A stretch of DNA of 35,636 nucleotides, from IMG/VR virus record IMGVR_UViG_3300005837_001107, positions 1 to 35,636 of that record; one strand, written 5' to 3'. Both the position numbers and the translations under genes were made by a program. A model generated the notes under the pieces. That model ran no database searches. It saw only the letters and a program-made list of their open reading frames with translations, and had not been told where the DNA came from. This DNA comes from a virus (Duplodnaviria; Caudoviricetes). Numbering within the stretch: the stretch's first letter is position 1; every line of letters starts with the position of its first letter. Positions 1-30,873 of the stretch are shown in pieces.

Positions 1-303
1 TTCGTAGAGTACAAGTACGTCAAATCCCTACCTAAGAAAGACACAACCGTGATTCGTCATTCGTTGTCCGCGCTTCAATGTGCGTGGCTCGAGCGCATGA
101 AGGTGAGTAGTCCGGTAGCACTAATATTAGGAGTTGAGGATTCCGCACTAATAATAGTTGACGACTTCTCAGCTAATATATATAAATCTAGGTATGTAGA
201 ACAAAGTATTCCACGGAAGCAGGTAGCTAAGTGGATCTACGACCAAACACACTCAGGAAGAGCACATGAAAAAACCTCACGAGTTGCCACAAGCAGTGAA
301 TAA
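1..303 (+). CDS. VRR-NUC / PD-(D/E)XK nuclease-like protein, 5'-truncated by the window edge
   Basis: Frame 1 is open from base 1 and reads FVEYK...LSALQCAWLERM...VALILGV, matching the ExK...LSxxQxxW pattern of phage VRR-NUC proteins. Confidence 0.65.
   Translation, partial: FVEYKYVKSLPKKDTTVIRHSLSALQCAWLERMKVSSPVALILGVEDSALIIVDDFSANIYKSRYVEQSIPRKQVAKWIYDQTHSGRAHEKTSRVATSSE
158..186 (+). promoter_or_regulatory. Putative sigma70 promoter for the repressor gene, embedded in the upstream CDS
   Basis: TTGACG (158-163), 17-nt spacer, TATAAA (181-186). A CTAATA half-site lies in the spacer, with two more at 121-126 and 148-153. Confidence 0.5.
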
Positions 304-877
304 CTTACGCGCTATTTGGGACCAAAAGAAAACAGAAATGAAGTTCACGCAGGTTGAAGCTGCAGCAAAACTTGGCTGGTCACAAGGCGCTATATCTCAT
401 TACCTAAACAACATCACCGATTTAGGTCCAGCAGCGGTTATTAAGTTCGCCAACTTCTTGGGTGTTGACCCCCTAGACATAGATCCAAACGTCATTTCTC
501 ACTTACCAAACACGCGCGCTCTTAAAATTACGCGCAACACCTCCAACTTCAACAAGCGTATTGAGGAAAACTATTACACCTCTAAACATAAAACGGATTT
601 CCGCGTGGTAGTAGACTCAAACGCTTTACTTTTCGAAGCGCCGGACCAGAACGATGGCCTAAAATTCACTAAGCCAGGTGAAACTTGCATCTGCACATTG
701 TGTGATGTGGAGGAAGCGCCCGATTCTTCATACTTCATGATTCAGAAAAAAGGCGAGAAAGCCGCGCATTATCATCACTACACATGTATGCCTGACAAAA
801 GCAAAATTAAGTCGATCTACGCCGTATGCGAAGTGATTTGGTCGAGTGATAAGGTATTAAAAGGGCCATACAAATAA
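266..877 (+). CDS. CI-like XRE-family HTH repressor
   Basis: The N-terminus LRAIWDQKK..FTQVEAAAKLGWSQGAISHYLN..FANFLGVDPLDIDP resembles the lambda CI HTH domain. RBS AGGA. Adjacent to xis/int. Confidence 0.85.
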   Translation: MKKPHELPQAVNNLRAIWDQKKTEMKFTQVEAAAKLGWSQGAISHYLNNITDLGPAAVIKFANFLGVDPLDIDPNVISHLPNTRALKITRNTSNFNKRIEENYYTSKHKTDFRVVVDSNALLFEAPDQNDGLKFTKPGETCICTLCDVEEAPDSSYFMIQKKGEKAAHYHHYTCMPDKSKIKSIYAVCEVIWSSDKVLKGPYK

Positions 878-944: not shown

Positions 945-1157
945 GTGGAAATGATCTTACTAGAGAAGTACGGCCCTTTCATGGATCTGGAGGAACTGGC
1001 CGATCTATTAAGGATCAAGAAACAGTCGGTATATCAGCAAATATATCGCGGTCAACTAGACGTACCTCATGTACGTCGCGGCAAAAAGTATCTTTTTCCG
1101 ACACAAGAAGTAGCTAAATACTTCACATCCCAGCTAAATCTTCCGCACGAAGATTAA
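945..1157 (+). CDS. xis: Excisionase / recombination directionality factor (HTH_17-like)
   Basis: 70 aa: MDLEELADLLRIKKQSVYQQIYRGQLDVPHVRRGKKYLF. RBS AGGAGG before a GTG start. Convergent with the integrase. Confidence 0.85.
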   Translation: MEMILLEKYGPFMDLEELADLLRIKKQSVYQQIYRGQLDVPHVRRGKKYLFPTQEVAKYFTSQLNLPHED

Positions 1158-2118
1158 CGTACCTAGAGAGTTGCTCAAGTGTGCGGTGACCTGACACCAC
1201 CCGCACTTGCTCGACCCTCATCCCCCTCTCAAACATCCGACTTATCGCCTCGTGGCGCAGATCATGAAATCGTAAGTCTTCGATTCCCGCTTTTTTCCGC
1301 AACTTGGCAAATGTGTCTGAAATGCTCGCCGCACGCTTTACAGGAACAAGGTTTGGCCCTGTGCGAATCATATTCTGTGAGCGTAGGAGCACGTCTCTCA
1401 CGCCCTTTAACAGAGGTATTTCCTGCTTAGATTGCCCTGTTTCAGCGTGCTTGTCTTTGCGCATTAGCTGAATCACGCCGCGATTTTTATCTATATCTGA
1501 CCATTTTAAGCGGTGTATTTCGCTCTGGCGCATCGCGGATTCAAGTGCAATATCGATAGCAATACTTATCCAATGCCCACCAGCCTCCATCATCAATGCG
1601 TCGTACTCTCCTGGTTCCAGGCGACGGTCGCGTCTTACGCTCCCCATGATAATTTTCTTTTTCTTTAGCTCATCGATAGCCATATCCACAACAGAATGCT
1701 CAGTCTTAATCCTGCTGTTTACGACAGCCTGCTTCAGGTAATACATCTGTGTCTGCAGTGTGCTCGGTCCTACGGTCTTTCGACGCATAGCAGCAAAGTC
1801 GAGCACGTCATCAAAGGTCATATCGTGTATCGATACACCAGCAAAATAACTTTTGATTTGGTTTAGCTGTCCCAGTTTGGGACCCGCGACTTCGATGCCG
1901 AATCTCTCGAACGAGTAGATAAGGTCATCAACAACGTTTTCCATGAGCACGGACCGCGTTTCACGAGTATCGATCCACGACCCGTTGTCCATGCTCGCCT
2001 CAATGCGGCGACCCCATGCCGAAGCAGCGGCTTTAGTTTTAAAGGTTTTCTGTTGGGTAGGTCGGCCTTTTGATTTGACGATTGCTTGCCAACCGTTGCC
2101 GCGCGTCCGTACGTGCAT
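1123..2118 (-). CDS. int: Tyrosine recombinase / phage integrase
   Basis: Catalytic motifs AMRQSEI (R), FHDLRHEA (HxxR), SGH and LSRY (Y). N-terminal arm-binding-like domain. Next to the att core. Confidence 0.96.
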   Translation of the reverse strand: MHVRTRGNGWQAIVKSKGRPTQQKTFKTKAAASAWGRRIEASMDNGSWIDTRETRSVLMENVVDDLIYSFERFGIEVAGPKLGQLNQIKSYFAGVSIHDMTFDDVLDFAAMRRKTVGPSTLQTQMYYLKQAVVNSRIKTEHSVVDMAIDELKKKKIIMGSVRRDRRLEPGEYDALMMEAGGHWISIAIDIALESAMRQSEIHRLKWSDIDKNRGVIQLMRKDKHAETGQSKQEIPLLKGVRDVLLRSQNMIRTGPNLVPVKRAASISDTFAKLRKKAGIEDLRFHDLRHEAISRMFERGMRVEQVRVVSGHRTLEQLSRYVNLRAEDLAGM

Positions 2119-13989: not shown

Positions 13990-14363
13990 TTGCGCATTCC
14001 CATAAGTTTCGATGCGCCCTTAATTCCGAACGAACTAGAGATCGCGATAAATAGCAGGTACTGATACCACTCAGGCAGATCGTTAAGCGTTGAGAATGCT
14101 TGACGCACACGATCTACAACCGTCATGTCATTGGCTATGATTGCGTAGCCGACCATGAATATTGGCACAGCTAATATTATAGTCCAAAACTCGTCTTTCC
14201 ACGAGCTGCCAGAAGCGTCTGCCATCTTCGCTTCCCAGTCTGCGTCGTTCTGGATAACGTTCATTTTGGCTTCGTGTTTAGCCTGTTTTTCTGCGGCCTT
14301 GTTGCTTAGGTAGGTCTTACCTAAATCTGCAACAGGGCCAAGTAACGCTGTAAATATGCTCAT
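13986..14363 (-). CDS. Putative holin
   Basis: Start moved to the ATG at 14363 (ATGA overlap). 125 aa with SWKDEFWTIIL and LPEWYQYLLFIAISSSFGIK TM segments, upstream of the endolysin. Confidence 0.65.
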   Translation of the reverse strand: MSIFTALLGPVADLGKTYLSNKAAEKQAKHEAKMNVIQNDADWEAKMADASGSSWKDEFWTIILAVPIFMVGYAIIANDMTVVDRVRQAFSTLNDLPEWYQYLLFIAISSSFGIKGASKLMGMRK

Positions 14364-17300
14364 AGTACGGTCCTCGCGATCGCTCCAACGCCTAATATGA
14401 CGCCAGCTTGTTCTTGCGGAGAGTTCATACGAGACCATGCGCCATCTATCGGGCCGTCCCGCAACGTTTTATCTACAAGCTCAGCTGTTGGGCCGAGCAT
14501 TGTTGCTAGTGCTGAGCCGCCCCAATCACCAGAACGCTGAGCCATAGTCAGCATTCCAAGAGGGCCATCCAGACCAGCTCTGCTAAATAACTCTATAAAG
14601 TAGGTGCCATAATCCATTTGATCCGATCGTAAGTACCTAAAGCTGCCATCAATCCCTGGTAGCGCAAAAGAAAGTCCCACTTTTGCGTATTCACGTAGCT
14701 CTAATCCAAGAGCCGCAAGTGGCATAAACGCCGCCATTGTAAGAACCATTAGTGGGCCCATTGCCGCAACAAAGCCTTTCCCTTCAAAAGTTCTTGTATG
14801 TGCTTCGCGCAATACGCCGTCTAGAATTACTTTGTTGAATGCGTAGATAAATGACTTTAGCTGCCAAACTAGTGCAAACCGCGGGTCTGAAGCCCATATA
14901 GGGCGCTCACCTGCGTTGGGGCGTAATACAGAGCTTTCAACAAATCGTTGGAGCGCCGCTCTTACTGCCTCACCTTCTTCAGTAGTGAAAGATTGGTCGC
15001 CTTCATTCCAAGCGCGCACTTGTTCAGCTGTGACGCCCATTTGGTTTAGATATCTCTCTGATCGCTCGGTTGGGTGATAGGCGTGCTCAATTAAGAACTG
15101 CTTACCCATACCCGTCGAAAACTCTCGAGACAGCGTTGTTAAGAACTGTAGGCCCGTCCATTGGAAGAACTTGTCAGTAGCCTGACGAGCCGTCGGGTCA
15201 AGCATGTCGCTATCGGCTTGTGACATCCACGCATTAGCCGCTGCTTCTGGCATTACCACGCCAATGTCATTTGCGAGTCGTTTAGCTTGCTCCCTGTTTT
15301 GAATCTGGTTCACTATTTCTTTAGCGGCCATACCAAAACCTTTGAACTCTCTGGTCTGCACAATAGAGCCAGCAAAGTCAGGTATCGAGGCTAACGTGGC
15401 AAATGGCAGTAGAGTTACAAGGTTCATGGTTGCCAGATAACTATTCGTCTTTCGCCAGAACGGCGATAAGTGAGTAACGTTACCTACATAGGCATTTATC
15501 ACGGATTGGGCTACTTCCTTCTCGCGCGGCGTCATTTCTTCAAGTAAAGCCCCTAGCTTGTCCTCGCCGTTAGGGCCTTTCATTGCTCTGTTCCATTCAA
15601 CGCGCTTAGTAACGTTATCCACGTATTTCATTAACGCTACTTCTGGGTCCATCAGATATCCGGTATCGCGTAGTAACCCTCTATCTATGTTTTTAGTTAG
15701 CTCAATTGAAGCTTCAGCAACAGCCCCAGGGTCAAGTATGTCCTCGCTTTCCGGTGTGCCACCCTGATCAACAACGGCTTGGTATTTCACAAGGCGATTG
15801 ACTGACTTTTTCAATGCCTTCATGTCAGTTTCGACGCCAGCAGCATTGTTCGCTTCGACGACCATTTCTATAAATGTATCTGGGTCAGCGGCAATTTCCG
15901 CGAGCTCGAGGAGTACTGGGAAGTAGTTCTCGCGGAAGTCGATCTCTGAATTAGATGGAGCTATGTAGTCCTCATGCATACGTTGCAAATAATTTCTAAC
16001 CGCAACGGCTTTCGGATTTTTAAGTTCGCTAGTGGGAGTACTGCTTTGCGCTTCTTTCAGAGCATCTTGTACTTCGTCAGTAGTCCAATCTTTACCCAAA
16101 ACCTCAAATAAACCAGCACGCCACTTATCCCGCGCTAACTGTCTTGCTTGCGCAAAACCCAATCCGCTTCTGTCAAAAGATCTTACGTAGAAGAGGTCTG
16201 CTAACTCGTCACCACCTACCATCCGGAGCATGCCATCCGCAGTTCTTATAATTCCCAATATCTGAGTTGCCCAAGGATTATTGTTCGCGAACTCTCGACT
16301 AAAGTTTTCCAAGAACTTTCTAAACTCTGCCTCGAGCGCGGCGGCACCAGTCTCAATGTTAATCTGCTCTTTGATGGCTTTGACAAACGCTTTCTGCTCA
16401 AACGGAGGCTCGTCGGGCTCTGGCATGCCATCAATGTTAGGCGGGGGTGGGGGTGGTGTTCCGCCACCTTGACCACCACCTGTAGCTGCTTCGTATTGCT
16501 CTTGCATACGCTCCTCGAAACGCGGGTCGAGGTCAGCTTTCGGAGGTGTGTAGAAAGGGTTTTCTTGTCCTTGTTGTAGTGCGTCTACCAAGTCCGATAG
16601 CAAATCGTTCCCACCTTGCGTGTTTGGTGCGCCTTTAGGGTTCTGGTTATACCAACCAGCTTCTTGCAACGCGGTAAACATATCGTCAATAGACAAGCCA
16701 TTATTAGTAAAAACAAACTTACTACCGACGCGCTCTCGGTAATAATCTCTTAGGCCATCTCTTTCAACAGACTCACGGCTTATCCCACCTCGAGCGGCAA
16801 TAGCGGCTAACAGGCCATCTTCATCTCTAGGGGTAAAGTTTTTCTTAGCTTGCTTACGGCGGCGAACAGTTTGTGCGCCTTGTCTAGCAAGCTCATCCCT
16901 CTGTTCTTGGGCTTGTTCAGTAGTAGGCTGTGACGCTCCCATAGCCGACGCAGATCCGACCATATTTCCATCGTCGTCATAGATCGGGTTAGCAACTACC
17001 TCACGCGTACCCTCACGGGTTTCCATAACTGAGTCCATGTAAGTACTAAACTCAGGGGCCACCGTATTTGTTCGACGGAAGATCGCGCTGTTTTTCACAT
17101 CGCGCCATAACTGCTTAAAGCGATTGGCGATTCTTTTAAAGTGGCTATCGACAGCGTTCTTAGCACCACGCTTGTCTTTAGTCATATCTTTCTTGATCCA
17201 CGCAGCTATTTGGTCTGCGTACCACTCTTCGAAACCGAATTTACCTTTGTACTGTTTTGTCGAGCCTTTCTTGGCTCTGTCTCGAATAAACCGTTCTGAC

Positions 17301-20300
17301 AGTCGTCCTAGAATTGCTGGGTTTTGCAGTGTCCCATTTAACTCTTCGCGAAAGACTGCGTGGCCAATCTCATGAGCCGCGGCCATAGCTTGAGCTGCTT
17401 CGTTAGTAACGTGTAAGTCATTCACCATAACTACGCCACCACCTTCGAACCCTTTAAAGAAGCCTTTTCGGTTTGGCTTACCGAACGAGTCTACGAAGTG
17501 ATTAGCTAGTTTTTCAGCCACAAGTGTTGAGTTAGTAATCGGCGCGAGCGCTTCGTACGCCGCGCGTCTGACTGCAGAGTGGCCCAATACTGCGTCACTC
17601 TTTACTTTACGAACCTGTGCGGCATAACCCTTATCAAGCAGGCCGTCTTTTTCAGCCTTACGGATAAACGCGCCGACCGCTTTCTTATCTGTTAGATCAA
17701 GCGTTTCTAGGGCTTTCATCGCTATCTTGCCGTTCGCGGTCTTCTTTTGTTTAGCTGGTATCAGGGCCGCAATCTGATCGCGCGTAGCAGCTTGGAAGCC
17801 TTTGAGACCTATTACTGCAATAGGTGTCTGGAGTTTGATCTTGCGAGACAAACGCCTTGTTAAGGCACTAACTGTTTCGCTCACACCTTCAAATGGGAAA
17901 GTAACAGCCCCCACAAGGTTTAATTTAGGTTTCGGCTTTCTATCGCTCTCTGGGCCCGTAGTTGGAGCTCGACCCAGCGGCCTGTTTTGAGTGCTATTTA
18001 CATTGCGCTCATCTTCAATATTCAGTGTAGTGAGGGGGATACCATCTTCCGTGCGCGCGTTGTTCGCAGCCATGTCGTATGGCTCAAGCGGATCACCTTG
18101 CTCTTGTTCTAGCGTTTGAGCTTCTTCTCGCGTCACAAGACGTGGCTCTGGGAAGACATCAATAACCTGTATACGTCTAATGTTATCGCGGACACGTGTA
18201 GCCGTTTCTGGCTTAGTCAGTAACCTTGTTATCTGCTGAAAGTGCGCGCGAGCCAGCGGGCTATTTTCGGTCTCGGGGTCCTTTTCTAATTCAACATTAT
18301 CGAATGGCCCAGAACGACCTGCTTCTAGGGGTGTAGGGTTAGGGTTATCCTCGCGGTCTTGAAACGAATCAAATGGTCCTTGGTTAGGACTTACGTCGCG
18401 CCGTTCTGTTGGTCTCTCTACTTCTGGTAGCTCATACAAACCTTGCTCGACAAGGCTTTCACCAATTCTGACGATTTCGTCTTCGGGTAGAGACCGCAGT
18501 TTTTCTATCAGCTCGCTAGGTTTTTCGTCGCCGCTAATACCAGCTAAACCGCCTGACTCCTGTTGCTGCCCAAACGTTTCGACTACTCGTACGTCATTAC
18601 CGAAGTCATCTGTAACTAATCTTTGAGATTGCTGTACAGGCGAATTTGGAGTTACTTCGACAAGCTCTTCTTCGGTCAACTCGTTTACTTTTAGGTCAGC
18701 GCGCTCCTGTGGAGTCAGCTGGCCGATAATGAAATCTAAATCCTCTCTGGCGAGTTTCGTGATCTGTTTAATGTACGCCTCGTACAAAGCCTCTGTCTTT
18801 ACGCGCGGGGGGCGCAACTTCCGAATATCACTTTCATCGACTTCAATGACTTGAGCTCTACGCAACTTTCGTCCGAGTTTGATAACGAATGGTTGGCCTA
18901 GGAGTTTGAGATTTCGAATAAACTGCGTGGGTCGCTGGTCAGGTTTGCCAGGGACGTAGTTCTTTAAAAGCGACTTCAAACGAATTGGCTTACCACCGCC
19001 ATCAAATGCAAGGACAATGTTGCCGTACGCGTCATCTAGACCCTTGCCACTATTCAGAGCTTCCATGATGGTCTGAAGCGGTACACCCTGAATATCTACC
19101 TCGTAACCACGCATCTGTAACTCACCCAACATTGCAAGAATGCCTTGCTGAGAAGACTGAAATGCGCCGCCACCCATAAACCCGCTTGCTGGGTCGTTAG
19201 ACTCAACGATGCGACGGCCTGAGTTCATGAGGTCAACAGGGTTTACTGCTACTGCTTTCTCCCTGTCAGGGGCTTTAACATTAACTGTTCTGAATTTGGG
19301 TAGGCTTTGTGCCGCCTTGTTCAAAGAGCGGGTAAGGAACTGCGATATAGATAGTTCTTGTTCTTCGCCTTTACCGTCTCGAAATCTAACCATCTGGGTT
19401 TCAGGCGTGGTTTCAATTTCAATGCGGAACGTGCCATCTGCATTTGGGCGAACCGTTACTATTTGATCTGGATTGGCCTTTTGGAGCTTGGAAGCGGTGT
19501 TAAGCAGGCTCTTACTCATACGAGCATTTAGAGGATTACTGAAGTCTGTTTCACCGAACATACTCTTGTAGTTCTCGCGAGCTTCATCAATCCCTTCGAA
19601 AGTATTGTCACCATCTACTCCCTGATAGCTTTCAAATACCTTCCCGTTGTTTACGAAGGTATGAACGCGTACCTCGGGTTCAAACTCGTTGTCACCAACT
19701 TGCTCGTTTGTATCTTGATCCTGTTCCATGATGTCGGCATCTTCATCCTCCATGAAACGTATATCTGGGTCTGCTCGGCGTGCACGATCAGCCAACCCTT
19801 CTTCGATAGACATAAACTCAACGCGCCCACCGTCAGGCATAATGTTTTCAGCGGCAGCTTTGGCCGCTTTAACGGCGTCCGGATCGAGCGTCACTGCCTC
19901 TTCGGAAACAATTCCACCGTCTTCGTCATATACGCGATAAACGTGCGTCTCTTGTCCAGTTTTTGCGTTGCTGTACCCCAAGGCAGATGCAAGAACTGAA
20001 TCAGATGCTTGCCCTTTAACAACATTTCTAACGACATCTATGTCTTGAGAAATGATCGTTCCGCGCCCTGGTACAAAAGCTGCGTATGCCACTTCACCAT
20101 TAATCGTAATGGCCCTAGGGGTAGTGCGTGTTGCGTAACGAGAGTCAGGCTCAGCACCCGCAATCCATACCGCTTCTTTGGAGCTACTTTTATTGAGCAT
20201 GGCTCGTAGCTGCGCATTGATATCTTGTTCGGATTCTTGAGAGGTTTGATCTGGATCTACATCGGCAGTTTCTGCAGTTGTTTGCGCACGCGTCATCGTC

Positions 20301-22042
20301 TCCTTTATGGAGTCGACCATATTTAAGGCTTTCTCAGCGACCTGTGCTCCCGCACCAATGATATTACTGTCGCCAACTTCAGCTAGTGTCTGCCTTGCAA
20401 GGCCAGTACTGCCTGCTAAAGAACCAGCTCCAAAGAAACCGACAAAACCTGCGTTTAATCTACGGAGATTTGCGTCTGCGTCCGTAAACGTATCGTCCAT
20501 AGACATACGGTTTCGGATTGCTAGCTCTTCTTGTGCGAGTTCAGCAGTGCCCTCAAGAGCACCACCTTTTATAAACTGCCCACCGAATTGAGTAGCTAAT
20601 CGACCCATTACTGAATCTGGGCCAGTGGATTTTTTAGCAGCTTGCTTGCTTATAAGGCTAACTAAACCTGCTTCACCCAAAACACCGATAGCTGCTTGTG
20701 GAACTGCCACGCCCATTGCGCGCAATGCGTTTGCCCGATCAAGTTCGCGACCTGACTCCAAAGCCTCCCCAACGTTAGACCCCGTTAGAGGGGCAAATTC
20801 AGAGGCCCCAGCGCCGCCAAGCGCGCCACGTTTCATTAAACGATTGCGTAAAAACTTATCTCGTTGGATAACATGCGCTTCTTGCAACGCTTCGTACGCG
20901 GCTTGTGCAATCTTCTGTTGATCTGGTGTCGCCTGTTTCTTAGCGGCCGCTTCTACAGAGTCTTGGACGATGTTCTTTACGGCATGCTTGCTAGCGCCTT
21001 TAAGGGCCTCTTTACCAAACAACATCGCCAAAGAGCCAACGCCAGCACCAGATATTGAGCTGACTACGCTTGGAACTAGCTGACCTGTTCCAGCAGAAAC
21101 TTGATCTAGAAAGCCTCCAACTGTTGGTGCATCTAAGAACTCACCGAACGTTTCCATGCCAGCTAAAGGTATACCCGCAAACTCTTCTGAAATACGTGCA
21201 TTCTCAATAGAGTCAGCTAATTCAGCTTTATCACCTTGTAGTGCATCTATTGCCGCCCCGAAATATGCAAAGTCTGAAAGTGTTTGCTCAGCGCCTTGCG
21301 CCATACCCCGACGGAACGTAGTGATTAAGTCGGTGGTACCCGTTGGGCCGATCGGGGTAGATGCAACTTGGTCGACGTTATCAGCTGTAACGCCTCCTGT
21401 AGTCCCCATAGAGTAGACTTCACCCATCAAGGCAGCATCAGTAGATGTTGCACCTGAGTTGTACGCCGCTTCGTTAACAGCTTGTGTGGTAGGCACAGGG
21501 GCCTGTGATGCGGGGGCGTTTACAAATTGCGCCACCCAATCTTGTGCCGCTGTGTCTCCCGTGCTTTTAATCTGAGGACCAAAAAACTTAGATATAGCGT
21601 CTTCTTCGGTAGCCGGAGTATTAGTTTGGGTATTACTTAAACCCCTCGCTTGAGACAATAAGGTCGGCGTATACATGCTAGTAGCATCTGGAGTTTCAAA
21701 CTGCACCATCGCCGCGATCATTCTTTCGCGAGTATCGGGGTTACTTAGATCAATCTTGTCATCGGGGTTGATACCCATCTTGTCCGCTACGAACTTAGCG
21801 TAGGCGGGCGTGGGGTTGTTATCTTCTGGCGGAGCAAACCTAAATATTGCCTCATTTAGGTTATCGATACCGTGCTTGGCTCCGTAGTTCTTTAGAACTA
21901 TGTCAGCCGCACGCAAACCACTTACGGGATCATCAAAAATCGCATAGTTGTTATCGTCTCCACCAGTCTGACCTTGCCAATCATTAGCTGGGTTGTAGCG
22001 GATGTTTAGCCAGTTATTGTTACGGACTCCGAGATTCGACAC
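14360..22042 (-). CDS. Giant internal virion / DNA-ejection protein with an N-terminal lysozyme-like domain and a zincin HExxH motif
   Basis: 2560 aa. GVRNNNWLNIR..F..PVSGLRA..IFRFAPPEDNN..Y N-terminus. AHEIGH (17360-17374) followed by FEEWYAD. C-terminal LVWQLKSF region with hydrophobic helices. Confidence 0.8.
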   Translation of the reverse strand: MSNLGVRNNNWLNIRYNPANDWQGQTGGDDNNYAIFDDPVSGLRAADIVLKNYGAKHGIDNLNEAIFRFAPPEDNNPTPAYAKFVADKMGINPDDKIDLSNPDTRERMIAAMVQFETPDATSMYTPTLLSQARGLSNTQTNTPATEEDAISKFFGPQIKSTGDTAAQDWVAQFVNAPASQAPVPTTQAVNEAAYNSGATSTDAALMGEVYSMGTTGGVTADNVDQVASTPIGPTGTTDLITTFRRGMAQGAEQTLSDFAYFGAAIDALQGDKAELADSIENARISEEFAGIPLAGMETFGEFLDAPTVGGFLDQVSAGTGQLVPSVVSSISGAGVGSLAMLFGKEALKGASKHAVKNIVQDSVEAAAKKQATPDQQKIAQAAYEALQEAHVIQRDKFLRNRLMKRGALGGAGASEFAPLTGSNVGEALESGRELDRANALRAMGVAVPQAAIGVLGEAGLVSLISKQAAKKSTGPDSVMGRLATQFGGQFIKGGALEGTAELAQEELAIRNRMSMDDTFTDADANLRRLNAGFVGFFGAGSLAGSTGLARQTLAEVGDSNIIGAGAQVAEKALNMVDSIKETMTRAQTTAETADVDPDQTSQESEQDINAQLRAMLNKSSSKEAVWIAGAEPDSRYATRTTPRAITINGEVAYAAFVPGRGTIISQDIDVVRNVVKGQASDSVLASALGYSNAKTGQETHVYRVYDEDGGIVSEEAVTLDPDAVKAAKAAAENIMPDGGRVEFMSIEEGLADRARRADPDIRFMEDEDADIMEQDQDTNEQVGDNEFEPEVRVHTFVNNGKVFESYQGVDGDNTFEGIDEARENYKSMFGETDFSNPLNARMSKSLLNTASKLQKANPDQIVTVRPNADGTFRIEIETTPETQMVRFRDGKGEEQELSISQFLTRSLNKAAQSLPKFRTVNVKAPDREKAVAVNPVDLMNSGRRIVESNDPASGFMGGGAFQSSQQGILAMLGELQMRGYEVDIQGVPLQTIMEALNSGKGLDDAYGNIVLAFDGGGKPIRLKSLLKNYVPGKPDQRPTQFIRNLKLLGQPFVIKLGRKLRRAQVIEVDESDIRKLRPPRVKTEALYEAYIKQITKLAREDLDFIIGQLTPQERADLKVNELTEEELVEVTPNSPVQQSQRLVTDDFGNDVRVVETFGQQQESGGLAGISGDEKPSELIEKLRSLPEDEIVRIGESLVEQGLYELPEVERPTERRDVSPNQGPFDSFQDREDNPNPTPLEAGRSGPFDNVELEKDPETENSPLARAHFQQITRLLTKPETATRVRDNIRRIQVIDVFPEPRLVTREEAQTLEQEQGDPLEPYDMAANNARTEDGIPLTTLNIEDERNVNSTQNRPLGRAPTTGPESDRKPKPKLNLVGAVTFPFEGVSETVSALTRRLSRKIKLQTPIAVIGLKGFQAATRDQIAALIPAKQKKTANGKIAMKALETLDLTDKKAVGAFIRKAEKDGLLDKGYAAQVRKVKSDAVLGHSAVRRAAYEALAPITNSTLVAEKLANHFVDSFGKPNRKGFFKGFEGGGVVMVNDLHVTNEAAQAMAAAHEIGHAVFREELNGTLQNPAILGRLSERFIRDRAKKGSTKQYKGKFGFEEWYADQIAAWIKKDMTKDKRGAKNAVDSHFKRIANRFKQLWRDVKNSAIFRRTNTVAPEFSTYMDSVMETREGTREVVANPIYDDDGNMVGSASAMGASQPTTEQAQEQRDELARQGAQTVRRRKQAKKNFTPRDEDGLLAAIAARGGISRESVERDGLRDYYRERVGSKFVFTNNGLSIDDMFTALQEAGWYNQNPKGAPNTQGGNDLLSDLVDALQQGQENPFYTPPKADLDPRFEERMQEQYEAATGGGQGGGTPPPPPPNIDGMPEPDEPPFEQKAFVKAIKEQINIETGAAALEAEFRKFLENFSREFANNNPWATQILGIIRTADGMLRMVGGDELADLFYVRSFDRSGLGFAQARQLARDKWRAGLFEVLGKDWTTDEVQDALKEAQSSTPTSELKNPKAVAVRNYLQRMHEDYIAPSNSEIDFRENYFPVLLELAEIAADPDTFIEMVVEANNAAGVETDMKALKKSVNRLVKYQAVVDQGGTPESEDILDPGAVAEASIELTKNIDRGLLRDTGYLMDPEVALMKYVDNVTKRVEWNRAMKGPNGEDKLGALLEEMTPREKEVAQSVINAYVGNVTHLSPFWRKTNSYLATMNLVTLLPFATLASIPDFAGSIVQTREFKGFGMAAKEIVNQIQNREQAKRLANDIGVVMPEAAANAWMSQADSDMLDPTARQATDKFFQWTGLQFLTTLSREFSTGMGKQFLIEHAYHPTERSERYLNQMGVTAEQVRAWNEGDQSFTTEEGEAVRAALQRFVESSVLRPNAGERPIWASDPRFALVWQLKSFIYAFNKVILDGVLREAHTRTFEGKGFVAAMGPLMVLTMAAFMPLAALGLELREYAKVGLSFALPGIDGSFRYLRSDQMDYGTYFIELFSRAGLDGPLGMLTMAQRSGDWGGSALATMLGPTAELVDKTLRDGPIDGAWSRMNSPQEQAGVILGVGAIARTVL

Positions 22043-27706: not shown

Positions 27707-27734
27707 AAAAGAAAGCCCCCTCCGTAGAGGGGGC
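27707..27734 (-). terminator. Rho-independent terminator after the major capsid gene
   Basis: GCCCCCTC-TACG-GAGGGGGC-TTTCTTTT: 8-bp stem, cUACGg tetraloop and U-tract, 7 nt after the stop. Confidence 0.92.
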
Positions 27735-27741
27735 GATAGTC

Positions 27742-28890
27742 TTACTGGGCAGTATCGAGAGCGATAACACCGAAGTCCTGTACAGAGCCACTTACGTCGC
27801 TGTTGTACTTAGGCTTACGGAGACCGAAGATCTTGCCTACAGAGATACCTGACTGGTTGCCATAGTCGAAGGTGTCTTCAACCATTTCAGGCAGACCGAT
27901 GTCAGCCAGTGCCAGAGCCTGAGCACCACAGAACAGAGCACGTCCACCAACTACGTTAGCGTCAGCACCCCACTTGTAGCCAGCTGCGCCAGCGTTAGAG
28001 GAAGTACCAGTAGTTGCACCAGAAGTGTTAAACACGTGGCGGAACTCATGGATCATTACACCGTCAACCATCAACGAAGCAGAACCAGAGAACAGGCTGT
28101 TGCCAGTTCCTCGAACGCCAGCGTTGCGGACGTTAGCTAGGAAGTCAGAATCTAACTTCAGAGCAGCCATCTGCTGAGGAGTAACGAACATGTGGAAAGT
28201 TTCTTGGTTACCAGCACCACGGATACCACGGATGTAGTTGTCTTTGGCATAAGCCTTCAACTCTACGATTGTGCGGTAGCCGATCTTGTCAGCGTCAGCG
28301 ACAGCAGTAGTGTCACCAGCAACTAGACCGTTAGCATTGTCCCAACGACGGTGACGATCACCAGTTGGGGCAGAAACGTCTGATGCAAACTCCAGATCTG
28401 CTAACTCGTGGCCAGCAGAAGAAGAAGTAGTACGTAGAGCACCATTGTTTTTGTGAGTGAAAGCAACACCTGACAAGGTCAAGAACGCCAACTGGTCACA
28501 ACGGTCAGCCATTGCATAAGCAAGTGCGTCACGAGACTGCTCACGGAAGTTAACTACAGTCTTCTGGTCGGTCATACGGCCAGCGATGCGGTTAGCAAAA
28601 CGCAACTGATCCAGCTCAATGGTGATGTCATACGCGCGGAGGGCTTCTTCGTTGCCTTCCAGAGTATTGTCACCAGTGATGCCGTCGCCAGTCATGTCAG
28701 CGAGCAAAGTGATGTTAGCTTTTGTGCCTTTCTGGTTCTTAGTAAGTTCAGTAACTCGCTGAACCATTGCGTTAGAACCTGAACCAGCGAACTGGTTGAT
28801 GAAAGATTGGTTGCGAGCAACTTTCCAGAAGTCGCGGCTCCACGTTTGGAGCTGGTCGCCCGTAAGCGTACCGAAATTAGTTAAAGCCAT
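27742..28890 (-). CDS. Major capsid protein (N4-gp56 / DUF4043-type, HK97 fold)
   Basis: 382 aa with GDNTLEGNEEAL..I.LDQLRFA, LFCGAQAL and EDTFDYGNQ..DFGVIALDTA. AGGAGG RBS, strong codon bias, terminator downstream. Confidence 0.92.
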   Translation of the reverse strand: MALTNFGTLTGDQLQTWSRDFWKVARNQSFINQFAGSGSNAMVQRVTELTKNQKGTKANITLLADMTGDGITGDNTLEGNEEALRAYDITIELDQLRFANRIAGRMTDQKTVVNFREQSRDALAYAMADRCDQLAFLTLSGVAFTHKNNGALRTTSSSAGHELADLEFASDVSAPTGDRHRRWDNANGLVAGDTTAVADADKIGYRTIVELKAYAKDNYIRGIRGAGNQETFHMFVTPQQMAALKLDSDFLANVRNAGVRGTGNSLFSGSASLMVDGVMIHEFRHVFNTSGATTGTSSNAGAAGYKWGADANVVGGRALFCGAQALALADIGLPEMVEDTFDYGNQSGISVGKIFGLRKPKYNSDVSGSVQDFGVIALDTAQ

Positions 28891-29110
28891 GATGGCCTCC
28901 TGTTAAATAGACAAATAAATTCATGCGGCACACGCCGCCTTATCAGCCGACTTAAAGGAGCGGCTAATCCGTATTCCCGTATCGTGGGACAACGAACTAG
29001 CGCTTATTTACGAGGTGCGACCTCGGCAGGTTTTACGCCTTGTGCAGGCGAGGAATACGTTTTTAACGGCTACGGGCCGACCCCATATCGTAGGGATGGA
29101 CGTATAGAGC
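28891..29110 (-). ncRNA. Candidate structured 5' leader RNA of the capsid mRNA
   Basis: At least seven hairpins plus a long-range 8-bp stem in a 252-nt intergenic gap of an otherwise tightly packed operon. Confidence 0.6.
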
Positions 29111-29111
29111 A

Positions 29112-29128
29112 TATTAGTATAGCTAATA
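29112..29128. promoter_or_regulatory. Operator-like palindrome TATTAG-TATAG-CTAATA upstream of the capsid leader
   Basis: Perfect 6-5-6 inverted repeat. Minus-strand TATGCT overlaps it in the same register as TATAAT does at the 13333 site. Confidence 0.65.
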
Positions 29129-29142
29129 ATACAATGCAACCA

Positions 29143-29538
29143 CTATCGATAACGGGCAGTCTTCTTAGCAATCTTCTTTGGTTGCTTACTAAACTGTTTA
29201 CCTTTTCTAGTATCGGCGCGCTTCTTAGCACTAGTCTTTGCGTACTCTTTCTTGCTTAAAGACTCGCGAGCCTTCTTTGGTAAGTACCTTTCACCTGTAG
29301 CCTTCTTACCCTGAGTACTGTTTTTTCCGGATTTAGTGCCCCATTTCTCTTTAGTCCACTTAGAAAGAGACTTCTGAGCTTTGGTTTTACCTCCTCGATA
29401 GCCGCCACCAGCTTTTTTATAGCGTTGTGTCGCGAGCTGCGCTTTCCGAGCGCTCCACTGCCCAGCTTTACCGCCTTTCGAGCTCGCTTTTACATCGGCA
29501 ACAATGCGTTTCCACAGCTTTTCGTTGGTTCGGGCCAT
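29143..29538 (-). CDS. Highly basic protein (DUF5872-like)
   Basis: GGKAGQWSARKAQL..YKKAGGGY..SLSKWTKEKW..GERYLP. Very Lys/Arg-rich. Confidence 0.75.
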   Translation of the reverse strand: MARTNEKLWKRIVADVKASSKGGKAGQWSARKAQLATQRYKKAGGGYRGGKTKAQKSLSKWTKEKWGTKSGKNSTQGKKATGERYLPKKARESLSKKEYAKTSAKKRADTRKGKQFSKQPKKIAKKTARYR

Positions 29539-29542
29539 CAGA

Positions 29543-29833
29543 TCACCATTTAACTTTGTTAGCCCAATAGGCCGCGCTCATTTTGCCTTTCGAAATGTTG
29601 CGACGGTGCCTAGCTTTGAAGCTAGCTCGCTTCTTCTTCATCCGTTCGGACTCACCGGCCTTTGGTTTCCCCGCAGTTTTAGCTCCTTGCTCTCCAAAGC
29701 GTATGGTTTTGATCTTGTCTCCCTCTTTAGCCACAACAATGTGTGACTTTTTAGGGTGACTGGGCGTCCTTTTAGGTTTGTTGTAGCCCGAGACTCCAGC
29801 TCGGGCTAATCGTGGGTCTTTTTTCGCGGCCAT
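29543..29833 (-). CDS. Small basic protein, putative DNA-binding/core protein
   Basis: KKSHIVVAKEGDKIKTIRFG..RASFKARH..KMSAAYWA..W. GAGG RBS. Confidence 0.75.
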   Translation of the reverse strand: MAAKKDPRLARAGVSGYNKPKRTPSHPKKSHIVVAKEGDKIKTIRFGEQGAKTAGKPKAGESERMKKKRASFKARHRRNISKGKMSAAYWANKVKW

Positions 29834-29844
29834 TTGTTACCTCA

Positions 29845-30873
29845 CTATAAGATATCGCCTCGTAGACGTTTCAAAGTTGCTTCAGGTAGGGCGTCAAACT
29901 CCTCTTCGGTCATAGTTGAGAGATCAAGAGCTTTCTCACCGTGAGTTGAGGAGCTTTCGCCTGGGAGTTCTGGCGGTTGGGCGTCAGCGGCTTTCAATTT
30001 CTTACTGACTTGTGCTCGTTTTTTAGCCAATTCGTCAGTTTTCTGCGCCTTTCCAGCTAGACTTGGCACACTTTCTTGCGCTTGGTCTAAGTCGTGGTCT
30101 TTCACAACGTATTTGACAGCTTTTGATAGCGCATCTACTGCTTCGTAGCCCTTCATGATGAAAGCGTCACGTAACTCAACGACTTCGTTAGTCATATCTT
30201 CATTAAAATCATCTGAATTACGGTCAAAAACAGGGTACGCATCTTCCATAGCACTAGCGGCCTGTTGTAATGCAGTCATCTGGCGGTCTTGATTCACCGT
30301 CTGACTCATTTCTTGGCGCATTTCGTACTCTAACTGCTCGCGTTCGGCCTTTCGGATCTCTCTGCGGAGAGCAACTGCTTTCTCCGTTTCGCCATCAAGT
30401 ACCATATTTTGGTATTCGACTTCTTTCGCATCGAAATCGTAAGATTCGGGCGCTTCCTCTGCTTTTTCATTTGCTGCATTTATCTCATCAAGTTGCTTTT
30501 GTAATGCTTTTTGCTTTGCTAACACCTCATCGAGGCGAGCTTTTGGAACCATCGGCTTCTTAGCGGGCTTTTCCTTCGCTACTGGCTCCTCTTCGGCCTC
30601 TACTTCTGCGTCGTCCTGTTCAGTTCCCTCTTCGGGCTGTTCGACGCTTTCATCTTCGGCCACAGTTTCTTCGGATTCTTCGGCAACGGGTTCTTCCGTC
30701 TCGTCCTCTGCCACAACTTCTTCCTCTTCAGCAACTTTTTCTGGCTCCTCTTCAGGTGTTTCGAAACTCAAATCCAGCTGAGGGCCATCATCTTCTTCGG
30801 GCTTATCAGCCCCAGGCATTACGTCAAACTCAATTGGCTTATCTTCTGCTACTTCATCTTTTTGCTTACTCAT
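29845..30873 (-). CDS. Capsid scaffolding protein
   Basis: Very acidic N-terminus, MVPKARLDEV coiled coil, C-terminal MTEEEFDALPE. Lies between portal and capsid. Confidence 0.75.
   Translation of the reverse strand: MSKQKDEVAEDKPIEFDVMPGADKPEEDDGPQLDLSFETPEEEPEKVAEEEEVVAEDETEEPVAEESEETVAEDESVEQPEEGTEQDDAEVEAEEEPVAKEKPAKKPMVPKARLDEVLAKQKALQKQLDEINAANEKAEEAPESYDFDAKEVEYQNMVLDGETEKAVALRREIRKAEREQLEYEMRQEMSQTVNQDRQMTALQQAASAMEDAYPVFDRNSDDFNEDMTNEVVELRDAFIMKGYEAVDALSKAVKYVVKDHDLDQAQESVPSLAGKAQKTDELAKKRAQVSKKLKAADAQPPELPGESSSTHGEKALDLSTMTEEEFDALPEATLKRLRGDIL

Follow-up and report, generated by a model that had tools for sequence, protein, structure and literature searches.

The window analyzed here, that is, the whole stretch of DNA under study, is a 35.6-kb (35,636-nt) virus record of an uncultured marine phage that is estimated to be 61% complete. 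On its minus strand, genes for a terminase, a P22-like portal protein and an acidic scaffold-like protein are followed by two small genes for basic proteins, a 250-nt gap and an N4-gp56-type capsid gene. The capsid gene (27742..28890, minus strand) encodes a major capsid protein of 382 aa (PF13252, E-value 1.5e-44; phrog_334; TIGR04387, 66.1 bits with the cut-off at 60), and an intrinsic-terminator-like hairpin (27715..27734, minus strand) lies directly 3' of this gene. The acidic protein (29845..30873, minus strand), encoded between the portal and capsid genes, produced no family match in profile searches and is, by position only, likely to be a scaffold. The basic proteins consist of 96 aa (29543..29833, minus strand; phrog_7595, of unknown function) and 131 aa (29143..29538, minus strand; a weak DUF5872 match below the cut-off). 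Elsewhere in the window, a tyrosine recombinase/integrase gene (1123-2118, minus strand) and a convergent HTH gene (266-877, plus strand) are located at the end of the virion module, and a 2,560-aa protein without an NCBIfam match (14360-22042, minus strand) is possibly an ejection protein.

A leader of 215 untranslated nt separates the capsid gene from a predicted sigma70-like promoter that consists, on the minus strand, of the -35 hexamer TTGCAT (29134..29139), where a promoter scanner made no call, and the -10 hexamer TAATAT (29111..29116), with a 17-nt spacer. The Shine-Dalgarno (SD) sequence AGGAGG (28896..28901, minus strand) precedes the start codon. We infer that transcription starts near 29105-29103, with the mRNA beginning at PK1, the first of the pseudoknots described below.

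A search of the viral collection with the capsid protein as the query yielded 400 relatives, 80 of which were kept; 72 of the 80 had enough upstream DNA and, together with the window, gave 73 leaders. A 16-nt core motif was found in 72/73 leaders, GG[AG]G ahead of the start codon likewise in 72/73, and the pattern TTG, 19-21 nt, TA[AT]TAT in 73/73. The core 16-mer alone, when used as a query, gave 119 viral matches, of which 110 are directly upstream of an N4-gp56-type capsid gene; the remainder are six leaders cut by a contig end and three matches without the rest of the motif. A loose pattern of the 3' domain was rejected as a search query, given a capsid match in only 46 of 120 hits, the rest being unscored and those inspected appearing unrelated or truncated. 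The possibility that the leader is a coding sequence was dismissed as well because indels of 1-2 nt are common in the alignment.

The extended set included 354 loci with capsid identity of at least 60%, corresponding to 161 distinct leaders and 94 clusters at 93%. The near-clade alignment consists of 87 of the 94 clusters and the window (88 leaders in total), with seven close relatives left out. Sites were re-anchored for each sequence on invariant bases, and in about 20 rows, the registers of the stems were assigned manually or with a pairing rule; the rule used nested stems and is therefore biased towards nested pairs and not towards knot pairs. In addition, we examined 60 distinct leaders from a distant clade (capsid identity of about 50%) with two-knot leaders. 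A -10-like hexamer with an upstream TTG, ending 5-13 nt 5' of PK1, is present in 81/88 near leaders. Seven divergent leaders (L494, L492, L512, L513, L521, L538 and L484) lack the usual promoter pattern and share GTGACTTTGG about 15 nt 5' of a TANNAT-like hexamer, possibly representing a different promoter class.

The genes upstream of the leader are less constant. The scaffold-like gene is found within 1,500 nt upstream in 76/95 near and 28/57 distant leaders, and the genes for the 96-aa and 131-aa basic proteins are upstream in 71/95 and 37/95 near leaders, respectively. Neither basic gene was found within 1,500 nt upstream in 20/95 near leaders, 57/57 distant leaders and 3/3 cultured phages; thus, the two basic proteins, which the first-pass annotation had proposed as sensors, cannot be the general partner of the RNA. 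In one relative (L333:372-2240), several small genes, some of which look lysis-like, separate the scaffold-like gene from the leader; what precedes the promoter is thus free to change, and the leader is retained. Two distant capsid relatives, Klebsiella phage LASTA and Burkholderia phage Bcep22, have a gene annotated as a CsrA-like regulator directly 5' of the capsid gene (L572:248-457 and L573:272-466); this gene for an RNA-binding translational regulator occupies the slot of the two basic genes here. The nearest cultured capsids are those of KPP25 and phiR18 (51% identity) followed by Acidovorax phage AP1 and Aeromonas phage phiA008 (44%), and no near-clade prophage was detected in the genome collection searched.

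Contigs of relatives from 7/7 RNA-library runs in five studies, which were picked because they contain the stretch and in which DNA may be present, extend from the capsid coding region into the leader, of which they include at least the 3' part. These data, consisting of contigs only, give a weak hint of a leader-capsid transcript, and the contig ends within the leader (28966-29082) are uninformative on the start site.

The seven hairpins that had been read from the single sequence, along with their A-rich tails, the two ACGAUA loops, the AU-rich stretch and the AGGAGG, were all found in place on the minus strand. The 251-nt region folds with an energy of -82.1 kcal/mol (z-score of -3.02), and only one of 200 dinucleotide shuffles was as good. 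Strong covariation is seen in the nested stems across the 88 leaders: a tree-aware, all-against-all comparison of 10,052 column pairs gave E<0.05 for eight stem pairs, and 20 of the top 22 pairs belong to the knot model described below, the other two being cross-terms of one stem. In the resulting 47-pair structure, 93.5% of the cells are paired, compared to 28-45% with the partners slid; a count made by the tool itself from the alignment before editing is consistent with this, with double changes at 35 of the 47 pairs, and the RNAalifold consensus contains five of the six nested stems. Across 25 stem pairs, there are 67 G-U against nine A-C combinations, an excess which points to the minus strand functioning as RNA. 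A variable hairpin located between the last pseudoknot and the SD (28925..28938, minus strand) is absent in some relatives. The search of the Rfam 15 covariance models gave no match at the gathering threshold in the window or in nine related loci (the best loose match scored 17.2 bits against a threshold of 42, E-value of 0.54), and ARAGORN detected no tRNA or tmRNA genes in the window. On the basis of these sequence comparisons, we regard the leader as a genuine and so far uncatalogued cis-regulatory RNA that belongs to an abundant lineage of aquatic phages.

According to the predicted fold, the leader is a tandem array of six compact H-type pseudoknots (PK1-PK6). For five of them, pairing of the hairpin loop with a short adjacent strand is indicated by matched changes (PK1, PK3, PK4 and PK6) or by the distant clade (PK5); these five share the H-type layout, in which the loop pairs outside the hairpin, L1 and L2 are short, and L3 crosses the stem. 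Thus, the repeated hairpin-UAAA units of the first-pass annotation exist as hairpins but not as free ones: the units are predicted to be pseudoknots in which UAAA is the stem-crossing loop. None of the knot pairs is significant alone in the all-against-all scan of 10,052 pairs (the best E-value is about 1).

Two types of units can be distinguished. In type 1, represented by PK1 (29080..29102, minus strand), the ACGAUA loop on a 5-6-bp stem contributes an ACG that pairs with a 5' CGU. The variable pair is canonical in 88/88 leaders, with approximately four independent double changes (rank 38 of 10,052, not significant alone). The pairing with the 5' AUACGU that had been put forward earlier can be drawn in the window, but its variable pair is intact in 63/88 leaders, with no double change and about 15 breaks; in PK1, the pair made by the same base is canonical in 88/88. 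The 8-bp downstream pairing proposed as its competitor fared no better, being drawable here but reduced to 3 bp or less in 67/88 leaders and extending to at least 7 bp in 4/88. The three hairpin-UAAA units belong to type 2, a mirror image of type 1 in which the strand 3' of the A-rich tail pairs back with the loop. In PK3 (29026..29050, minus strand), the knot pairs are canonical in 83/88, 77/88 and 71/88 leaders, with about six, two and four double changes; they rank 13, 16 and 26 of 10,052, with E-values of about 1, 2-4 and 11-42, respectively. PK4 (29001..29025, minus strand) abuts PK3 without a spacer, and its knot pairs, canonical in 88/88, 88/88 and 78/88 leaders, show matched changes, with the third pair at rank 17. 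In PK2 (29058..29079, minus strand), which is read as a hairpin, UUAAAA and a loop-pairing strand by analogy with the other type 2 units, the stem covaries, the knot consists only of an invariant CG/CG, and the third pair is canonical in 52/88 leaders without covariation, so that we can only infer this knot by analogy.

PK5 (28975..28994, minus strand) is a type 1 unit built on the second ACGAUA loop; all three knot pairs are canonical in 88/88 leaders, the near-clade changes are one-sided only, and the module covaries in the distant clade. In PK6 (28945..28970, minus strand), the loop on an AGCCG/CGGCU stem contains a UCC that is paired with a GGA further upstream, thereby holding the anti-SD. 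The variable pair (GGN with NCC of the next loop) is canonical in 84/88 leaders and represented by four pair types, and all three pairs form in some register in 87/88 leaders (rank 121). Kissing between this loop and the SD was considered as the main partnership of the PK6 loop and rejected: the varying base follows the upstream strand (84/88) rather than the SD (74/88), and the flanking pair shows no covariation.

The distant clade offers a further view of the type 1 module. There, CG-N precedes each RCGAHA-loop hairpin, and N follows the base before the loop CG, a rule that predicted PK1 and PK5 in the near clade and was then found to hold for PK1 in 88/88 leaders. In the SD-proximal modules, the variable knot pair is Watson-Crick in 50/59 cases, compared to a mean of 19.8 and a maximum of 32 in 5,000 permutations, and in the distal modules, in 42/57 cases with about 19 expected; the rule used for this count was blind to the third pair. 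On the capsid tree, about 13-14 double changes map to this pair. With the scanner that was written after seeing the leader, the leader is also the densest spot of the window for compact knots (four in 220 nt, at most two elsewhere). PK2-PK4 are predicted to be compact knots of about eight pairs with a conserved A-rich L3; such knots of about 22 nt are very small natural H-type folds, of which the lineage offers many natural variants for structural work.

The second predicted fold of the leader, denoted OFF, consists of two parts. The first is helix P6 (28963..29001, minus strand), in which 29001-28992 pairs with 28972-28963 over 10 bp and which cannot coexist with PK5 and PK6. The outer 5 bp of P6 are intact in every one of the 75 core leaders, and all 18 inferred substitutions keep the pairing; all eight pairs (8/8) form in 55/88 leaders, and the helix is weak in the 13 most divergent ones. 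The linker 3' of PK4, which is unpaired in the six-knot model, is almost frozen in the 75 core leaders, compared to 11-30 substitutions at each of the other unpaired sites. Formation of P6 would free the PK6 loop and 3' strand, which are able to pair with the SD and the preceding bases, yielding the second part, a long helix over the SD (28897..28960, minus strand; 28960-28946 with 28912-28897).

In the 41 near leaders closest to the window, the 16 nt 5' of the SD pair with the PK6 3' strand better than shuffles in 41/41 cases, reaching p<=0.05 in 31 with the SD part and in 20 without it, and the PK6 3' strand is the best of ten segments. Because this strand is nearly invariant in the near clade, support there comes from one-sided changes only; after thinning for kinship, 22/26 leaders still go in the right direction, with 6/26 at p<=0.05. 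The distant clade is the stronger test given that both sides vary. Among its 52 leaders (of the 60) with two parsed modules, pairing of the 14 nt 5' of the SD with the proximal knot outperformed shuffles in 47/52 (29 at p<=0.05), compared to 28/52 (three at p<=0.05) for the distal knot; in swaps between sister leaders, the own partner was better in 35/39, and after thinning for kinship, 5/12 were at p<=0.05. In the nested ensemble, the SD is mostly paired in 54/58 distant leaders and in the window.

This complementarity is not universal. It is missing from 18 near leaders with ACGCA before the SD, of which 5/18 pair better than shuffles, and the 13 most divergent leaders lend it no support (9/13 better than shuffles, one at p<=0.05), amounting to 31/88 leaders in total where the PK6 complement is unsupported; a swap within an eight-member divergent group showed no specificity; burial of the SD is predicted in one of the two folds. 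In the 18 leaders (for example, L087, L124, L159 and L243), a conserved ACGCA replaces the usual pre-SD sequence, and its best match among the ten segments is the PK3 3' strand (16/18 better than shuffles, 11 at p<=0.05), with both sides nearly invariant; the OFF helix may thus be rewired towards PK3 in these phages.

The nested energies favor OFF with a median gap of -16 kcal/mol, a value that omits pseudoknot energies and uses forced constraints and hence overstates OFF; under the ON constraints, the program leaves the SD fully open in only 3/75 leaders. Taken together, the comparative data show the stems, five of the six pseudoknots and a pair of mutually exclusive folds, with good support for the structure and moderate support for a two-state switch. 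The initial description of a switch-like, structured capsid leader is thus borne out to the extent that the leader is conserved, covaries and has two mutually exclusive folds, even as the particular rival pairings named at that time did not hold up.

The interpretation that we tentatively prefer, while considering it slightly less than an even bet, is a protein-triggered translational switch. Under this scenario, folded PK5 and PK6 would leave the ribosome-binding site open and capsid translation ON, and replacement of these knots by the alternative helices would bury the SD and turn translation OFF. Because the nested energies favor OFF, some factor would have to hold the knots for high capsid output. 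As the trigger, we propose a protein with affinity for the RCGAHA-loop knot, which occurs twice (PK1 and PK5); the most plausible candidates are an assembly protein of the phage, for example the scaffold, and the S1 protein of the host, located on the 30S subunit. Such binding would stabilize PK5, whereupon PK6 would lock the anti-SD loop onto the upstream GGA, such that capsid synthesis would be licensed only while the binding partner is present; the knots further upstream could provide more binding sites and protect the 5' end against decay. Scaffold-linked control has a reported precedent in the autoregulation of the P22 scaffold. The mostly acidic character of the scaffold-like protein counts against this protein as the knot binder.

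The knots could, alternatively, remain folded at all times, blocking RNase E scanning from the 5' end and keeping the SD open as a constitutive stabilizer or enhancer, with the OFF fold being incidental. The knot array begins at the predicted mRNA 5' end, the number and type of knots differ among lineages (2 to 6), which fits a shape-based role, and the named hosts of the relatives are mainly Proteobacteria, which have RNase E. H-type pseudoknots have been described to impede RNase E scanning to an extent proportional to their size, with a plateau above about 50 A (PMC9943677). However, such a role leaves unexplained the frozen linker and P6 (75/75) as well as the coordinated evolution of the last knot and the bases preceding the SD, and we regard it as unlikely as a full explanation of the leader. 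A stabilizer role of PK1-PK4 may exist alongside the switch, with which RNase E protection is compatible.

A ligand-free kinetic gate or an S1 standby site would rest on the same two-fold evidence as the protein-triggered switch: the nascent knots would allow a burst of initiation or catch the 30S subunit via S1, after which OFF would form. There are parallels for both elements, in that tisB standby requires a 5' pseudoknot binding S1 and 30S (PMC7708055), and timP switches slowly without processing (PMC11295053). We nevertheless consider this reading rather improbable: judging by the order of the parts, P6 would be complete before the PK6 3' strand is transcribed, so that OFF could form first, and a timer would limit the output of the most-needed protein.

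Small conserved tandem knots combined with an SD-sequestering platform would also suit a small-molecule riboswitch with the RCGAHA knots as tandem aptamers, and the loop begins with ACGA, resembling the ACGR loops of guanidine-II (PMC9094411). The absence of Rfam matches, the location of the element, among the core 16-mer matches, only before capsid genes and never before metabolic or transport genes, and the covariation of the first loop base with the 5' strand make this possibility very unlikely. The put RNA is a nascent-RNA antiterminator, and the position of the element directly 3' of the predicted promoter, with a terminator after the capsid gene, is compatible with such activity, but the conserved alternative pairing targets the SD rather than a terminator, and the stand-alone phage ncRNA suggested at the outset is at odds with the 110/119 core matches that precede a capsid gene, with the lack of any terminator-like site called on the minus strand between the knots and the start codon to close the element and, weakly, with the RNA-library contigs that join it to the coding region, so that we place hardly any weight on either.

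Beyond the window, a generic knot scanner was applied to capsid leaders with 40 shuffles each; having been written after seeing the leader, it is circular for the window, where it reported four knots (0/40 shuffles), compared to one on the reverse strand (11/40). Two knots each (0/40 shuffles) were reported for AP1, for the Paracoccus phage KLEP18-1 (32% capsid identity), L555 and L513, two for L400 and one for phiA008 (1/40 each). The single knots in KPP25 (6/40; modules readable by eye), Bcep22 and RHph_Y1_10 did not exceed chance, and no knots were called in LASTA, Pan3, the Manatee Spring phage and three leaders of the P0123 clade. The latter clade keeps the CG and an ACG-starting loop, with the third knot pair mismatched. 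Its members (L557-L570) have a differently arranged, conserved multi-hairpin capsid leader with one ACG-starting loop (ACGAUAC in L562) and longer-range pairings. Candidate CG-N and matching-loop motifs also precede related capsid genes in Herminiimonas and Allochromatium contigs.

It is conceivable, if on balance doubtful, that these leaders represent a lineage-wide class of phage translational ON-switches made of interchangeable mini-pseudoknots, in which binding of a phage assembly protein or a small molecule to the RCGAHA knot blocks the SD-burying helix. If so, phages ranging from marine ones to the cultured ones that infect Acidovorax, Aeromonas, Paracoccus and Pseudomonas would make capsid synthesis dependent on readiness for assembly. 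The matching of capsid to scaffold and portal supply in tailed phages is usually ascribed to promoter strength and terminators; an RNA switch on the capsid message would constitute a post-transcriptional checkpoint.

A literature search for the leader element, with most subscription journals outside its scope, found only the study by Fremin et al. 2023 with the uncharacterized candidate structured RNAs DNAVirus_3698 and DNAVirus_865 (85 and 62 nt), which are listed within 25 nt upstream of capsid_maj_N4 genes in 37 and four cases, respectively; DNAVirus_3698 includes 180 sequences, 90 of them marine (PMC10690425). The table rows for the two candidates give no pseudoknot or function. Both candidates may overlap the leader in part, and a portion of the leader may be DNAVirus_3698 itself; either would be at most a fragment of the 215-nt element.

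Several known RNAs share individual features with the leader. The upstream pseudoknot domain of TMV and hordeiviruses likewise consists of consecutive small pseudoknots, binds a protein and enhances translation, but is located in the 3' UTR of plant RNA viruses, comprises three knots and binds eEF1A, with no SD control in that description (PMC10870377). PK2-PK4 match the BWYV-type frameshift pseudoknot, a compact H-type knot of about eight pairs with an S1-L3 minor-groove triplex, in size and in the A-rich L3, so that a similar triplex could be surmised, by analogy only; the BWYV-type element is a single knot inside the coding region that acts on elongating ribosomes (PMC7618472, PMC9943677). 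Guanidine-II (mini-ykkC) comprises two hairpins with ACGR-starting loops that kiss via C-G pairs, is located before sugE and frees the SD in a ligand-dependent manner (PMC9094411). Both leader loops begin with ACGA and are 6-7 nt long; unlike guanidine-II, they pair with a 5' strand, with the first loop base covarying with that strand and the invariant CG alone compatible with kissing, there is no Rfam match, and the downstream gene in 110/119 cases encodes the capsid protein rather than a guanidine exporter.

Closer in setting is the gene 32 operator of T4, T2 and RB69, also located in a phage mRNA, where a 5' pseudoknot lies upstream of an A+U-rich stretch at the ribosome-binding site, an arrangement found in the leader as well; the pseudoknot is the protein-binding site, and the message is very stable (PMC3014915). 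Gene 32 has one knot, its own product represses by coating the unstructured stretch, and no alternative helix is part of the operator as described there (PMC3014915). Activation of bacterial translation by a pseudoknot is considered a rare phenomenon (PMC11295053). In tisB and timP, a 5'-UTR pseudoknot turns on translation of an mRNA with a buried SD (PMC7708055, PMC11295053), and the capsid leader resembles these in the predicted combination of a leader pseudoknot with an otherwise buried SD. The tisB and timP leaders contain a single knot, which does not itself free the SD, and are controlled by antisense RNA; by contrast, the leaders described here carry 2-6 knots, the last of which is predicted to be directly exclusive with the SD helix, upstream of a phage structural gene.
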